From the UHGV virus genome UHGV-0097493: a DNA stretch of 22,798 nucleotides; one strand, 5' to 3'. Under the pieces are notes generated by a model. That model searched no databases and was not told where the DNA came from. It saw nothing but the letters and a program-made list of their open reading frames with translations. How positions within the stretch are numbered: position 1 is the first letter of the stretch; each line of letters begins with the position of its first letter. The DNA is from a virus. Positions 1 through 22,485 of this stretch are shown one piece after another. The translations under genes were made by a program, and so were the position numbers.

Positions 1-598
1 TGGCAGCCTGAGTTCACAGATAAAACACTCTCCAGGAAACCCGGGGCGGTTCAATTAACACCCTGTTTGGCCCGTTTGTTCTGGATCTGTTCACTGACGG
101 TGATAACGCCAAATGTGCTGCGTATTACACGGCGGAAGACAACGCGCTGGCGCATGACTGGTCAGAACGCCTTGCGGAGCTTAAAGGTGCTGCCTTTGGT
201 AATCCCCCATACAGCCGCGCCAGTCAGCATGAGGGGCAATACATCACCGGCATGCGTTACATCATGAAGCATGCCAGTGCCATGCGTGATAAAGGCGGGC
301 GCTATGTTTTCCTGATCAAAGCTGCCACCAGCAAGTGTGGTGGCCGGAAGATGCAGATCATATTGCTTTTATTCGCGGGCGTATTGGTTTTGAACTGCCT
401 GCCTGGTTTATCCCGAAGGATGAGAAGCAGGTGCCGACAGGCGCTTTCTTCGCTGGTGCTATTGCTGTTTTCGACAAGACCTGGAAGGGACCGGCAATCA
501 GCTACATCGGGCGCGATGAACTTGAGGCATGTGGTGAGGCCTTTCTGGCGCAGGTTCGCCAGCAGGCAGAAAAACTGGTCAGGGAGATGGCGGCATGA
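1..598 (+). pseudogene. Phage-type DNA N6-adenine methyltransferase (Dam family), 5' end outside window, apparently frame-disrupted
   Basis: Frame 0 (open from 24) reads ...FGPFVLDLFTDGDNAKCAAYYTAEDNALAHDWSERLAELKGAAFGNPPYS..., with the NPPY catalytic motif at 201-212. Protein-like reading then continues only in frame 2 (335..598: WWPEDADHIAFIRGRIGFELPAWFIPKDEKQ...). Frame 0 past ~335 turns Arg-rich and runs through the next gene. Frame 0 also has stops at 9-11 and 21-23, so the N-terminal part must lie in yet another frame. The stop overlaps the next start (ATGA at 595-598). Confidence 0.45.
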
Positions 599-921
599 CG
601 ACGTTAACTCAATGCCAGCAGCAGGTGCTGGATATGCTGATTTCTTATCAGAAAGAACGTGGCTTCCCGCCAACCAATCAGGAGGTGGCAACCATGCTGG
701 GATACCGTTCAGTGAATGCAGCGGTGGAGCATCTTCGCGCACTGGAGAAAAAAGGCGTCATCACGATAAAGCGTGGCGTGGCCCGGGGCATCACGCTTCA
801 TACCGCGGTGAAGGACGACGACAGCGAGGCGGTCGGGATTATCCGCTCACTGCTTGCCGGTGAGGAAAACGCAAGGCTGCGTGCAGCCCACTGGTTACAT
901 GAGAGGGGCCTGAAAGTATGA
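595..921 (+). CDS. LexA N-terminal DNA-binding-domain-like protein (winged HTH only, no S24 peptidase domain), 108 aa
   Basis: MTTLTQCQQQVLDMLISYQKERGFPPTNQEVATMLGYRSVNAAVEHLRALEKKGVITIKRGVARGITL matches the LexA N-terminal domain pattern (recalled LexA: ...[52 protein letters not shown]...). The ORF ends after ~40 more residues. ATGA overlaps at both ends (595-598 and 918-921) suggest translational coupling. Confidence 0.7.
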   Translation: MTTLTQCQQQVLDMLISYQKERGFPPTNQEVATMLGYRSVNAAVEHLRALEKKGVITIKRGVARGITLHTAVKDDDSEAVGIIRSLLAGEENARLRAAHWLHERGLKV

Positions 922-1307
922 AGCTGATCCTGCCTTTTCCGCCCAGCGTGAACACGTACTGGCGACACCCCAACAAAGGGGCGTTTGCTGGTAAGAGCCT
1001 GATAAGCGCGGCGGGGCGAAAATTCCAGAGCGCGGCGTGCGCAGCAATAGTTGAGCAGTTACGTCGTCTGCCGAAACCAACGTCGGCACCTGCTTCAGTG
1101 GAGATCGTGTTGTTTCCTCCGGATAACAGGATCCGCGATCTGGACAACTATAACAAGGCGCTGTTTGACGCCCTGACCCACGCGGGGGTGTGGGAAGACG
1201 ACAGTCAGGTGAAAAGAATGCTGGTGGAGTGGGGACCGGTTATCCCGGAAGGGAAGGTCGAGATCACTATCAGTAAGTACGAGAAAACGGCGGGTGCAGC
1301 TGCCTGA
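918..1307 (+). CDS. rusA: Holliday junction resolvase RusA, 129 aa
   Basis: RusA-family pattern: LPFPPSVNTYWRH near the N-terminus and RIRDLDNYNKALFDALTHAGVWEDDSQV, which carries the conserved acidic catalytic residues. Size is typical (~120-130 aa). Confidence 0.88.
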   Translation: MKLILPFPPSVNTYWRHPNKGAFAGKSLISAAGRKFQSAACAAIVEQLRRLPKPTSAPASVEIVLFPPDNRIRDLDNYNKALFDALTHAGVWEDDSQVKRMLVEWGPVIPEGKVEITISKYEKTAGAAA

Positions 1308-3133: not shown

Positions 3134-3150
3134 TTTTGTGGAGAAAGTTG

Positions 3151-3534
3151 ATGCGTGATATTCAGATGGTTCTTGAGCGTTGGGGAGCGTGGGCGGCTAA
3201 TAATCATGAAGATGTGACCTGGTCGTCCATTGCCGCCGGTTTTAAGGGATTAATTCCTTCAAAAGTAAAATCTCGCCCGCAATGTTGTGACGATGACGCG
3301 ATGATCATTTGCGGGTGCATGGCCCGTCTGAAAAAGAACAACAGCGATTTGCACGATTTATTAGTAGATTATTATGTAGTCGGTATGACATTCATGTCAC
3401 TGGCAGGTAAGCATTGCTGCTCTGATGGTTATATCGGGAAAAGGTTACAAAAAGCTGAGGGCATAATTGAAGGGATGTTAATGGCATTAGATATCTGGTT
3501 AGAGATGGATATCGTTGTTAATAACTCTAATTAA
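3151..3534 (+). CDS. Q: Late-gene antiterminator Q (phage 21/DLP12 quuD-like), 127 aa
   Basis: [31 protein letters not shown]...[16 protein letters not shown]...[12 protein letters not shown] is recognised from memory as the lambdoid Q family found in DLP12/phage-21-type prophages. ATG 3151 is preferred over the tool's TTG 3136 because GGAG at 3140-3143 sits 7 nt upstream. Confidence 0.8.
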
Positions 3535-3723: not shown

Positions 3724-4806
3724 TTAGAACTGGTAAACCAGACCTACAGCAACGATGTCATCAGTATCAATACCAGCTGTTTTGGTAAACTTACTATCGT
3801 CAATTAAGTTGATTTTGTAATCAACAAAAGTGGACATGTTTTTATTAAAGTAGTAAGTAGCACCGACATCGACATACTTGACTAAGTCTCGGTCACCATG
3901 AACACCAAGGTCTTTACCTTTTGACTGAAGGTAAGCAACAGATGGGCGCAGACCGAAGTCAAACTGATATTGTGCTACTGCTTCAAAGTTTTGTGCTTTG
4001 TTTGCAATATGGTTATTACCAAAAACGGTCATATTCTGAGTTTCAGAATATGTGGTAGCCAGATAGATATTGTTCGCATCATATTTCAGGCCTGCAGCCC
4101 ATACTTCCGCATTTTTGCCGGAGGCATTGAATTTGCTCTTACCATAGGCGACCTGACCGTCAGTGCGATCTGATTTAGCATAGGTTGCACCCACGCCGAA
4201 TCCTTCATACTCATAAGTAGTGGAGAAACCGAAACCATCACCATTGGCTTCAGTTACGTCAGTGCGGTCATTTTTACCCTGATACTGAGCAGCAAAGTTC
4301 AGGCCATCGACCAGACCAAAGAAGTCGTTGTTACGATAAGTTGCAACACCAGTAGTGCGACCAGTCATGAACACATCTGTTTGGGTCCAGGTATCACCAC
4401 CGAATTCTGGCAGGACGTCAGTCCACGCACCGATGTCGTATGCTACACCGTAGTTACGGCCGTAATCGATTGAGCCGTAATCACCAAATTTCAGGCCTGC
4501 AAATGCAAGACGGGTTTTGTCTTTGGAAGAACCTTGAGATTCAGCGCGGTTGCCTTTGAATTCATATTCCCACTGACCGAAACCAGTCAGTTGATCGTTG
4601 ATTTGGGTTTCACCTTTGAAGCCAAGACGGGCATAAGTAGTATCACCATCATCTGCATCATTAGAGGAGAAGTAGTGCTTAGCATTAACTTTCCCGTACA
4701 GATCCAGCTTGTTACTGTCTTTATTATAAATTTCAGCTGCCTGAGCAGACATCGCCATCAGTACTGATGCAGCTACAGCAGAAATTGCCACTGTTAATTT
4801 TTTCAT
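3724..4806 (-). CDS. nmpC: Outer membrane general porin NmpC/Lc (OmpC/OmpF/PhoE family), intact, 360 aa
   Basis: Signal peptide [23 protein letters not shown] followed by [17 protein letters not shown]... The porin hallmark PEFGGDT and a C-terminal ...VGLVYQF (terminal Phe) are present. The sequence matches NmpC/Lc porin as recalled. RBS AAAGGG is upstream. Confidence 0.9.
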
Positions 4807-6547: not shown

Positions 6548-6578
6548 TTTTTTTGCAAATCACAAAGTCCATTTAATG

Positions 6579-6602
6579 AGCCTCGCGATGCGGGGCTTTT
6601 TT
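6579..6602 (+). terminator. Intrinsic terminator after Rz/Rz1
   Basis: GCC(T)CGC-GAT-GCGGGGC hairpin (6580-6596, one G-U pair) followed by TTTTTT (6597-6602), 32 nt after the Rz stop. Confidence 0.55.
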
Positions 6603-6746
6603 ATATCTGAATTTCACAGCGCATCTCACGCGCATATTAACGAGAGCCTTTCAGTAAGCGAGCCTGAGAAATGCCGTTATAGGTGGCGACCTCTCTCGGG
6701 CGGCTTTTCTGTGAGACAGGCTCACTTTCTAAAAGGTAAAGACGCT

Positions 6747-7244
6747 ATGAAAGCAATCACGCTTTTTAATACACCGATCCGTGTTGATGAATCAGGAATG
6801 ATCTGCCTCACTGATATGTGGAAAGCCAGTGGTAAAAGTGAATCTGAATCTCCGTACCACTACCTGCGAAACAAGCAGACCAAAGAGTTCTTAGCCGAGC
6901 TGGAGAAAAACCACGAATCTGTGGTTTTTACTGAGCGCGGTGTACACGGTGGAACATATGGCGGGAAGTTTGTTGCTTATGATTATGCAGCATGGCTAAA
7001 CCCCGGATTTAAATATGCAGCCTATAAAGTCCTGGATGACTACTTCACCGGAGAACTTCAGCATCGCAACAGCTTAAGTGCGCAGCTCAACATGAAATGT
7101 CATGAGTTTGACCAGAAGAAAGACATGGCGAGCTTCTGCGGACAAGGGCTGGCAGCATGGCGCTATACGAAGCCAGTGTTGGTCGCTGAGATTAACTCCC
7201 TGGCTAACCAGCTGCAGATTACGATCCCCGGGCTTCCGGGATGA
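6747..7244 (+). CDS. KilA-N domain protein (second copy in window), 165 aa
   Basis: MKAITLFNTPIRVDESGMICLTDMWKASGKSESESPYHYLRNKQTKEFLAELEKN...GGTYGGKFVAYDYAAWLNPGFKYAAYKVLDDYF fits the KilA-N pattern. The 57-codon in-frame extension upstream to 6576 spans the terminator and is not protein-like, so ATG 6747 is used. Confidence 0.65.
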   Translation: MKAITLFNTPIRVDESGMICLTDMWKASGKSESESPYHYLRNKQTKEFLAELEKNHESVVFTERGVHGGTYGGKFVAYDYAAWLNPGFKYAAYKVLDDYFTGELQHRNSLSAQLNMKCHEFDQKKDMASFCGQGLAAWRYTKPVLVAEINSLANQLQITIPGLPG

Positions 7245-21843: not shown

Positions 21844-22485
21844 TCAAAGCAACGGGATTTCAAGGTAAACTGCGGTTGCCAAAATACTAACATCTTCATT
21901 TCTAACAAGAATATTAGGATACATTGGGTTTAGGGATACTAGGTTTGTCTCTATTTCACCAATGTAAACCTGTTTGAAGCTCAATATTTGCTCTTTATCC
22001 AATGATGCTATTACATAATCTTTGCTTTTAGCTTTTACTAGAGGGCTGAACGTGACAACCGATCCTCTGGGAAAGCTAATACCTGAACTTGTAGTCATAG
22101 CTTCACCTTCAATAGTCAATGCAAATGCAGAGTCACCAACATTGTATATTGCCGGATGAAATCTAGACGATGAATGTTCACCTGTGTTTAGGTAATGCAT
22201 AACTTCATCTAGTTTGAGGATTGGTATTTGCTTTACCAGAACGTCAGGCATGACGTTTTTTGTTCCCGGACCCTGACCTTCACCTAGAGCTAACCACTCA
22301 GCTGTAGTACCTAATGCGTTGGCTAATGCCTGCAATACCCGAAGCCGTGGTTTAGCCTCACCACCCTCGTATGCAGCTATTTGACGTTGAACAACACCAG
22401 CTAATTTTGACAACTGCGCCTGCGTCATACCCCTGGACTGTCTTGCCAGAGATACTCTTGATGGGAATTGATCGTCAAAATTCAT
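21844..22485 (-). CDS. CI/LexA-like repressor: N-terminal HTH_XRE plus C-terminal S24-peptidase-fold domain with Ala in place of the nucleophilic Ser, 213 aa
   Basis: The HTH is LARQSRGMTQAQLSKLAGVVQRQIAAYEGGEAKP. The C-terminal domain aligns by eye to lambda CI (recalled [28 protein letters not shown]...FTFKKL...LNPQYPMIP) as VGDSAFALTIEGEAMTTSSGISFPRG...LSFKQ...LNPMYPNIL. Confidence 0.8.
   Translation of the reverse strand: MNFDDQFPSRVSLARQSRGMTQAQLSKLAGVVQRQIAAYEGGEAKPRLRVLQALANALGTTAEWLALGEGQGPGTKNVMPDVLVKQIPILKLDEVMHYLNTGEHSSSRFHPAIYNVGDSAFALTIEGEAMTTSSGISFPRGSVVTFSPLVKAKSKDYVIASLDKEQILSFKQVYIGEIETNLVSLNPMYPNILVRNEDVSILATAVYLEIPLL

Follow-up and report, generated by a model that had tools for sequence, protein, structure and literature searches.

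A LexA-type DNA-binding head without a protease domain, encoded upstream of rusA in lambdoid prophages of Escherichia coli

The LexA-like gene and its protein

The stretch of DNA analysed here (the window) is the virus genome UHGV-0097493 of the UHGV, 22,798 nucleotides long and read on one strand. Near its start lies an intact gene, named here the LexA-like gene, preceded by the remnant of a methyltransferase gene and followed by rusA. Its product of 108 amino acids (aa) carries a LexA-type DNA-binding head and a predicted two-helix tail, and ends before any S24 peptidase domain. The coordinates of these features are given in Table 1.

Residues 1-65 of the LexA-like protein match the Pfam profile LexA_DNA_bind (PF01726) over its whole length (positions 1-65 of 65; E=2.9e-19; 69 bits for a cut-off of 23.7). 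In the same Pfam scan, the next-best winged helix-turn-helix (wHTH) families, HTH_Crp_2 and Rrf2, stay under their cut-offs. This comparison had been proposed as a check by an earlier reading made from the letters alone (the sequence-only reading). That reading had reported a 108-aa frame with a LexA winged helix-turn-helix and an S-x-N-A-A-x-E-H-L helix at this place, and is right in all sequence-level details. The top matches in the PDB are the DNA-binding domain of E. coli LexA and full-length LexA (phmmer, E about 1e-15; 7e-16 to PDB LexA), with ~50% identity to E. coli LexA across residues 2-69 in the phmmer alignment. The recognition helix S39-V-N-A-A-V-E-H-L47 stands opposite S39-P-N-A-A-E-E-H-L47 of E. 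coli LexA. Two AlphaFold2 models, both of the monomer, give a three-helix winged helix-turn-helix (predicted local distance difference test, pLDDT, 80 and 83). Foldseek superposes the modelled head on the LexA DNA-binding domain (1lea/3jso) with a root-mean-square deviation (rmsd) of 1.1-1.2 Å over 67-69 residues, a probability of 1.00 and 50% identity.

No S24 peptidase domain with its Ser119/Lys156 dyad is found in the LexA-like protein: the chain ends at residue 108, because rusA begins (at 918) at the stop codon of the gene. The NCBIfam lexA equivalog TIGR00498 is matched only over positions 1-91 of 203, with a score of 70.8 for a cut-off of 110.95. The protein belongs to the LexA_DNA_bind domain family PF01726 and to PHROG 362. 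In the sense of the equivalog it is no LexA repressor: the S24 domain and a conserved cleavage site are lacking, and its score stays under the curated cut-off. Since RecA*-stimulated self-cleavage needs LexA's own S24 domain, the protein is incapable of it, in agreement with the earlier proposal of a protein that stops before any S24 domain and is not inactivated through RecA.

Over residues 1-69, the LexA-like protein and E. coli LexA share the wHTH fold (rmsd 1.1 Å) and 50% identity. The residues retained include Ser39, Asn41, Ala42, Glu45, His46, Leu47 and the wing residues Arg64-Gly65-Ile66. Unlike E. coli LexA, the LexA-like protein lacks an S24 peptidase/dimerisation domain and any conserved Ala-Gly cleavage site; it has Val at the positions of Glu44 and Pro40, and a 35-residue two-helix tail of its own. 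It is encoded in a phage early operon, whereas E. coli LexA is encoded at the chromosomal lexA locus.

The hydrophobic positions of the tail (79, 80, 82, 83, 86, 87, 93, 97, 100, 101) are conserved among 20 aligned family members. A97 and L101 are invariant in these 20 sequences, down to 39% identity. The full-length relatives at 39-48% identity found by an exhaustive HMMER search keep both the length and the hydrophobic positions of the tail. PHROG 362 covers residues 1-108, tail included (profile 1-106 of 106, E=1.4e-59). A homologue of the 40-residue tail was searched for with phmmer in the PDB and with hmmscan in Pfam, and no significant match was obtained. The conservation of the hydrophobic pattern to 39% identity argues for a functional tail. 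LexA dimerises through its C-terminal domain (PMC3091678). Because this domain is absent and the hydrophobic pattern of the tail is conserved, the simplest reading is that the tail is likely a replacement oligomerisation or dimerisation element. Heterodimers with host LexA, suggested by the sequence-only reading, are unlikely because the dimerisation domain of LexA is precisely the part that is lacking: they have no structural basis, and the tail resembles nothing detectable.

State of the locus, neighbours and distribution

The upstream gene had been read as a methyltransferase remnant, which it is. Alignment to the intact gene of a relative (L001, E. coli F5505-C1) indicates that its 5′ end was removed by the terminus of an insertion sequence (IS), IS1203/IS629. 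The frame that stops at 596-598 opens only at 335 because of a 1-nt deletion at 332/333. The 5′ part of the remnant is now in the frame of an open reading frame (ORF) at 252..863, which crosses the LexA-like start codon. In the intact relative, the methyltransferase gene is 654 nt long and ends on the same ATGA. The junction of the IS element with the methyltransferase remnant gave no exact match in the GTDB representative genomes, and none of the complete E. coli genomes covers 80% or more of the window.

Table 1. Features found at the start of the window and within the LexA-like gene.
Feature	Position	Strand	Description
IS3-family terminus (IS1203/IS629), 52 bp	1..52		100% matches, at as many as 50 places in one E. 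coli genome, with the annotation IS1203 or IS3-family transposase
Dam-type N6-adenine methyltransferase remnant (PF05869)	53..598	+	5′-truncated; 1-nt deletion between 332 and 333; Pfam match on the 3′ part
GGAG, Shine-Dalgarno-like	583..586	+	8 nt 5′ of the LexA-like ATG; read from the sequence
LexA-like gene	595..921	+	108 aa, ATG start, intact ORF; product 100% identical to WP_000210164.1
wHTH, residues 1-69	595..801	+	Helices 6-22 and 28-35, recognition helix 40-52, wing strands 56-58 and 66-68; AlphaFold2, Foldseek and phmmer
Linker, residues 70-74	802..816	+	Acidic, low-confidence: pLDDT <50 at 71-75 and 71-74 in the two models; length varies (indels) across the family
Two-helix tail, residues 75-103	817..903	+	Helices 75-88 and 93-103 in two AlphaFold2 models; proposed oligomerisation or partner-binding element
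rusA, Holliday-junction resolvase	918..1307	+	Pfam PF05866, E=6e-15; start overlaps the LexA-like stop (ATGA)

Both junctions of the LexA-like gene are ATGA start/stop overlaps (595-598 with the methyltransferase remnant, 918-921 with rusA). Translational coupling to both neighbours had been proposed. The two overlaps are present; upstream coupling is doubtful in the window because of the frameshift in the remnant, and plausible in intact relatives. No promoter-like site was found upstream of the LexA-like gene in the 3.7 kb scanned, over which the total of such sites does not exceed chance. Insertions of IS elements upstream of rusA activate rusA in E. coli K-12; by analogy, the IS element of the window might drive the LexA-like/rusA pair.

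The neighbours were compared in 94 loci, 80 of which are near-identical copies (99-100%) chosen as the closest in protein sequence; the loci are not independent, and both the synteny and the selection sample are biased accordingly. In 93 of the 94, the next gene downstream is rusA; in the exception, one gene is inserted before it. The upstream gene varies: Dam (53 loci), PerC-family (30), unrelated C5/N6 methyltransferases (4), a replication gene (3), and no match to a reference protein (4). The upstream junction is often broken and the downstream one almost never, a contrast that is real despite the non-independence of the loci. Most of the 94 loci, and several homologues at 40-45% identity, retain the ATGA overlap with rusA. 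L007, L010 and L011 differ: there, the pair is separated or lacks the overlap. Counted over complete E. coli genomes, the rusA allele of the window (2299 genomes, 2976 places) and the LexA-like gene (2233 genomes, 2855 places) stand at nearly 1:1. The order LexA-like, rusA, (KilA-N or ANT), DUF968, Q is kept in homologues of about 40% identity. In all contexts examined, the LexA-like gene lies between replication/methyltransferase genes on one side and rusA-KilA/ANT-DUF968-Q on the other. The stress formerly laid on the methyltransferase does not fit these counts: the constant partner is rusA. The methyltransferase is rejected as the defining functional partner, since Dam is upstream in only 53 of the 94 loci.

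Three unrelated methyltransferase families are found directly upstream of the LexA-like gene in different phages (L007, L008/L009, L013, L010): PF05869 Dam; PF00145+PF02086 fusions of 609-846 aa; and a 673-aa protein with a weak PF00145 match. This slot may be a hotspot for methyltransferase cargo. Two prophages with a distant homologue carry unusual cargo next to these genes: after Q, a Cas1-like gene together with an AcrVA2-like gene (L010, 9794-11390) and, inserted upstream, a pair of toxin-immunity-like genes, RNAse_A_bac / CdiI_2 (L011, 3863-5232).

The LexA-like gene is found in 2233 of 5426 complete E. coli genomes, nearly always on the chromosome, and its ORF is intact in 2223 of them, with 95-100% identity. 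It is annotated in these genomes as 'LexA family transcriptional regulator'. The surrounding 3.2 kb are found in 285 phage records, including Stx1/Stx2-converting (Shiga-toxin) phages, cdtI, mEp460 and SfII. The labels in phage records vary: 'LexA-like protein', 'LexA DNA binding domain protein', 'SOS-response repressor and protease LexA'. Records that label the 108-aa protein 'SOS-response repressor and protease LexA' or 'RecA-mediated autopeptidases' include KF030445.1, LR595868.1 and AB285204.1; these labels are wrong because a 108-aa protein without S24 domain is concerned. RefSeq labels the adjacent Dam methyltransferase 'phosphoadenosine phosphosulfate reductase'. PHROG 362 is annotated 'transcriptional repressor'. 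A survey of Stx phage genomes lists, by annotation alone, a pfam01726 'LexA family' pham 237 among lysis-lysogeny genes (PMC8136144). From its pfam01726 label, pham 237 appears to be the LexA-like family; PHROG 362, WP_000210164.1 and, if so, pham 237 are names for the same family and, as far as the literature showed, annotation labels only. Many metagenomic proteins of 140-230 aa have two LexA_DNA_bind stretches per chain (P0128, P0129, P0137, P0138, P0139, P0142, P0146 and others). They could be single-chain pseudo-dimers of the LexA head.

Among 44 haplotypes, 47 synonymous and 10 non-synonymous segregating sites give a ratio of non-synonymous to synonymous change (dN/dS) of about 0.04, a value obtained on the 80 loci closest in protein sequence, a choice that biases dN downward. 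This excess indicates that the gene is under purifying selection. Independently of this sample, the conservation of the family down to about 40% identity leads to the same conclusion of constraint.

Apart from this locus, the window consists of a mosaic lambdoid/P22-like prophage with KilA-N, DUF968/HNH, Q, porin, lysozyme and Rz genes, a P22-like packaging, head and ejection module, and an S24-type repressor-like gene at the far end. The latter, a CI-like gene (21844-22485, minus strand; HTH_3 + Peptidase_S24), lies at the end of the virion/ejection module, far from the early region. As it encodes a LexA/CI-type self-cleavage domain, the same prophage fragment carries a cleavable repressor and a protease-less LexA-like protein. 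A complete Gram-negative porin gene (Porin_1, E=1.8e-151; 3724-4806, minus strand) is flanked by the Q antiterminator gene (3136-3534) on one side and the lysis genes on the other, and looks like a prophage-borne accessory (cargo) gene. A first KilA-N gene is found at 1327-2136. Directly after the lysis genes, a further KilA-N protein with a fused ORF11CD3 domain is encoded (6576-7244, plus strand). A PADLOC search for defence-system membership gave only a weak match of wHTH type (CARF3--CARF, E=3.6e-4).

Operators and possible modes of action

The residues of LexA that contact DNA are Ser39, Asn41, Ala42, Glu44 and Glu45 (PMC3091678). The LexA-like protein keeps four of the five (Ser39, Asn41, Ala42, Glu45) and has Val in place of Glu44. 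In the family alignment (20 members), Ser39 is invariant, Asn41 is found in 19 of the 20 sequences and the wing residues R64-G65-I66 are invariant. From these residues, binding to SOS boxes is plausible. The complete genome of the carrier phage mEp460 (L003, 44.5 kb) contains five exact CTGT-N8-ACAG sites, for an expectation of ~0.7 calculated here from its length and a uniform base composition. Two of them are in tandem upstream of a dinI-like gene (23257-23272 and 23285-23300). The others are at 31972, 33200 and 41023: one falls inside a CI-like repressor gene, another inside an antirepressor-like gene, and one where a late-region DNA methyltransferase gene starts. In 33 related loci, the boxes CTGTAAGTAACCACAG and CTGTTTTTA[TC]ATACAG are found again, 3.0-3.6 kb upstream of the LexA-like gene.

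The mode of action preferred here, tentatively and with somewhat less than an even chance of being right, is that of a non-cleavable LexA-derived protein which, as an oligomer held by its tail on LexA-type half-sites, re-represses SOS-box promoters during lytic growth. The model starts from what was shown: which domain the protein has, that a protease domain is absent, that the tail is conserved, where the gene sits in the operon and that it is under selective constraint. The remaining steps would be as follows. The protein would be translated from the rightward early transcript, in the lytic growth that follows induction or infection; this timing is deduced from the place of the gene in intact relatives, whose rightward early operon carries it between the replication genes and Q. 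Its expression would coincide with the destruction of host LexA. The protein would pair through its own C-terminal two-helix tail, and the paired protein would occupy LexA-type operators (CTGT half-sites). The physiological purpose would be to restore repression at SOS-box promoters, whether these belong to the host, to co-resident mobile elements or, as with the dinI-like gene, to LexA-box genes of the phage itself.

Several points weigh against this model. Position 44 is never acidic in the 20 aligned family members (mostly hydrophobic, one Thr). Position 40 is changed from Pro to Val in the enterobacterial clade; Pro is found in 7 of 10 more distant members. With these two substitutions, operator specificity may differ from that of LexA. 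A search of the prophage for LexA-box-like sites, an idea of the sequence-only reading, gave no exact CTGT-N8-ACAG in the window, and sites with one mismatch are at chance (7 observed, 8.5 expected). The boxes of the carrier phages do not discriminate between models because they are expected for host LexA alone, which explains them equally well. Dimerisation through the tail is a guess: the structural models are monomeric, and the tail could bind another protein instead. The IS element of the window parts the LexA-like gene from the phage early promoter. The selection estimate is lowered by its sampling, as stated above. The gene is known and widespread as a sequence and is already annotated; its function is unstudied as far as the literature showed. 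Beyond mentions at annotation level, no functional or DNA-binding study of the lambdoid LexA-like family was found in literature searches, some aimed at this family and some at LexA more generally, and two papers that mention rusA contain nothing on this gene.

The last point against SOS-box repression comes from the Bacillus tectivirus GIL01. Its protein gp6, 44% identical to host LexA's DNA-binding domain, binds a non-LexA palindrome, GaCACAnnTGTGaC, and activates the late promoter P3 (PMC6182141). It is the closest characterised analogue, and the only truncated LexA homologue of a phage known to be characterised. Because gp6 has a different operator and activates transcription, domain identity does not predict the DNA target. 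The LexA-like protein may work like LexA, as an SOS-box repressor, or like gp6, as a phage regulator. In the latter case, the LexA fold would have been kept and the operator would have diverged; a phage promoter would be repressed or activated, for example for the timing of late or accessory genes, and the host SOS regulon would not be the target. This alternative, the main rival, is possible, if rather unlikely. Besides the gp6 precedent, it draws on the family-wide substitution at contact position 44, on the change at position 40 and on the absence of an SOS box from the window; a different dimer scaffold, the tail, would also probably alter the spacing of half-sites. However, the other four base-contact residues and the wing are as in enterobacterial LexA, and the gene sits inside a tightly packed operon with no promoter of its own to autoregulate.

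The precedent itself is distant. Both proteins are phage-encoded LexA homologues cut to the DNA-binding domain and encoded among early genes, but gp6 has 66 aa, is tail-less and binds via Lys38, whereas the LexA-like protein has 108 aa and a tail. The PHROG matches of gp6 are 3502 (E=1.8e-21) and 362 (2.8e-5, wHTH only); those of the LexA-like protein are 362 (1.4e-59) and, more weakly and through the wHTH, 3502 (4.5e-15). BLASTP of gp6 against the LexA-like protein gave no pairwise alignment. By these profile matches, the LexA-like protein is not of the gp6 family (PHROG 3502). A second protein of GIL01, gp7, joins LexA in a complex that allows weak LexA boxes to be repressed, and probably has an effect on every promoter under LexA control (PMC6182141). 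A later paper ties, in its title and abstract, the dominance of GIL01 over a co-resident phage to a small phage protein (PMC9700832). The general strategy, a mobile element that alters LexA-controlled promoters, would be common to gp7 and the LexA-like protein; gp7 binds the LexA protein, whereas the LexA-like protein looks like a DNA-binding replacement of LexA.

The linkage to rusA leads to another, improbable, explanation: an accessory or regulatory partner of RusA, in which the wHTH protein of a co-translated cassette would target, temper or time RusA on phage DNA, perhaps through its tail. The partnership is suggested solely by tight genetic linkage. To this linkage belong the constancy of rusA downstream while the upstream gene varies, the ATGA overlap kept in most loci and in distant homologues, and the nearly 1:1 co-occurrence in complete genomes. 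As the upstream junction overlaps equally and is often broken, overlap alone does not explain the linkage. However, synteny of the lambdoid nin region is largely inherited, most of the loci compared are near-identical, and the separated or non-overlapping pairs of L007, L010 and L011 depart from the pattern. RusA is known as a homodimeric resolvase that acts alone. It also occurs in the DLP12 prophage of E. coli K-12 and in phage 82, neither of which is known to carry the LexA-like gene.

The tail contains an apparent cleavage motif. HMMER aligns L-L-A88-G89-E-E with V-A-A84-G85-E-P of LexA, in an alignment to LexA 70-86 that has low posterior support there. The pair A88-G89 is not conserved: it is AN in Citrobacter-like copies and VG in one Salmonella copy, and the stretch is unrelated in distant members (MVERES, IAEEPG, MADTPD, others). 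In the two AlphaFold2 models, the segment is a predicted helix end and turn; the cleavage region of LexA is a strand-loop-strand. On these grounds, an Ala84-Gly85-type cleavage site in the tail was rejected. A decoy for the cleavage machinery, which would mimic the cleavage loop of LexA and act as a competitor for RecA* or for the active site of LexA/CI, or else undergo cleavage in trans, is very improbable: the placement of A88-G89 against A84-G85 and the extension of the TIGR00498 alignment to position 91 would fit it, but the pair already varies within Enterobacteriaceae and vanishes in distant members, and the predicted structure and the poor alignment support are against it. A decaying, functionless fragment of a captured lexA gene, which the truncation and the degraded surroundings (IS insertion, frameshifted neighbour) might suggest, has almost no chance of being right and is refuted for the family as a whole by the intact ORFs, the length and tail conserved to 39% identity, the strong synonymous excess and full-length membership of a populated phage family, PHROG 362.

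Significance for lambdoid phages and their hosts

The LexA-like gene is an annotated gene, not a discovery. Three things are new here: a helical tail that is conserved, a change at contact position 44 throughout the family, and the lexA-like/rusA cassette. The protein is a cheap and well-defined target for a first functional study.

A wider proposal combines re-repression of SOS-box promoters with the linkage to rusA and is, taken as a whole, doubtful. The two genes would be a dedicated cassette, present in about 40% of E. coli genomes and in many Stx phages. Its LexA mimic, proof against RecA and dimerised by the tail, would shut SOS-box promoters after lytic commitment (host SOS functions, rival LexA-controlled prophages, colicins) and might act with RusA on replicating phage DNA. 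It would be a phage 'SOS off-switch' that shapes induction hierarchies and Stx output.

If the LexA-like protein has drifted to a phage operator, as gp6 of GIL01 has, it would be a second independent case of a phage turning the LexA head into its own regulator. If occupancy of SOS boxes and immunity to RecA*-stimulated self-cleavage are both true, an induced phage could re-close the SOS regulon. A gene acting in this way would be present in roughly two fifths of sequenced E. coli and in many Shiga-toxin phages, with possible effects on mutagenesis, on the induction of co-resident prophages and colicins and, possibly, on toxin yield after SOS-triggering antibiotics.

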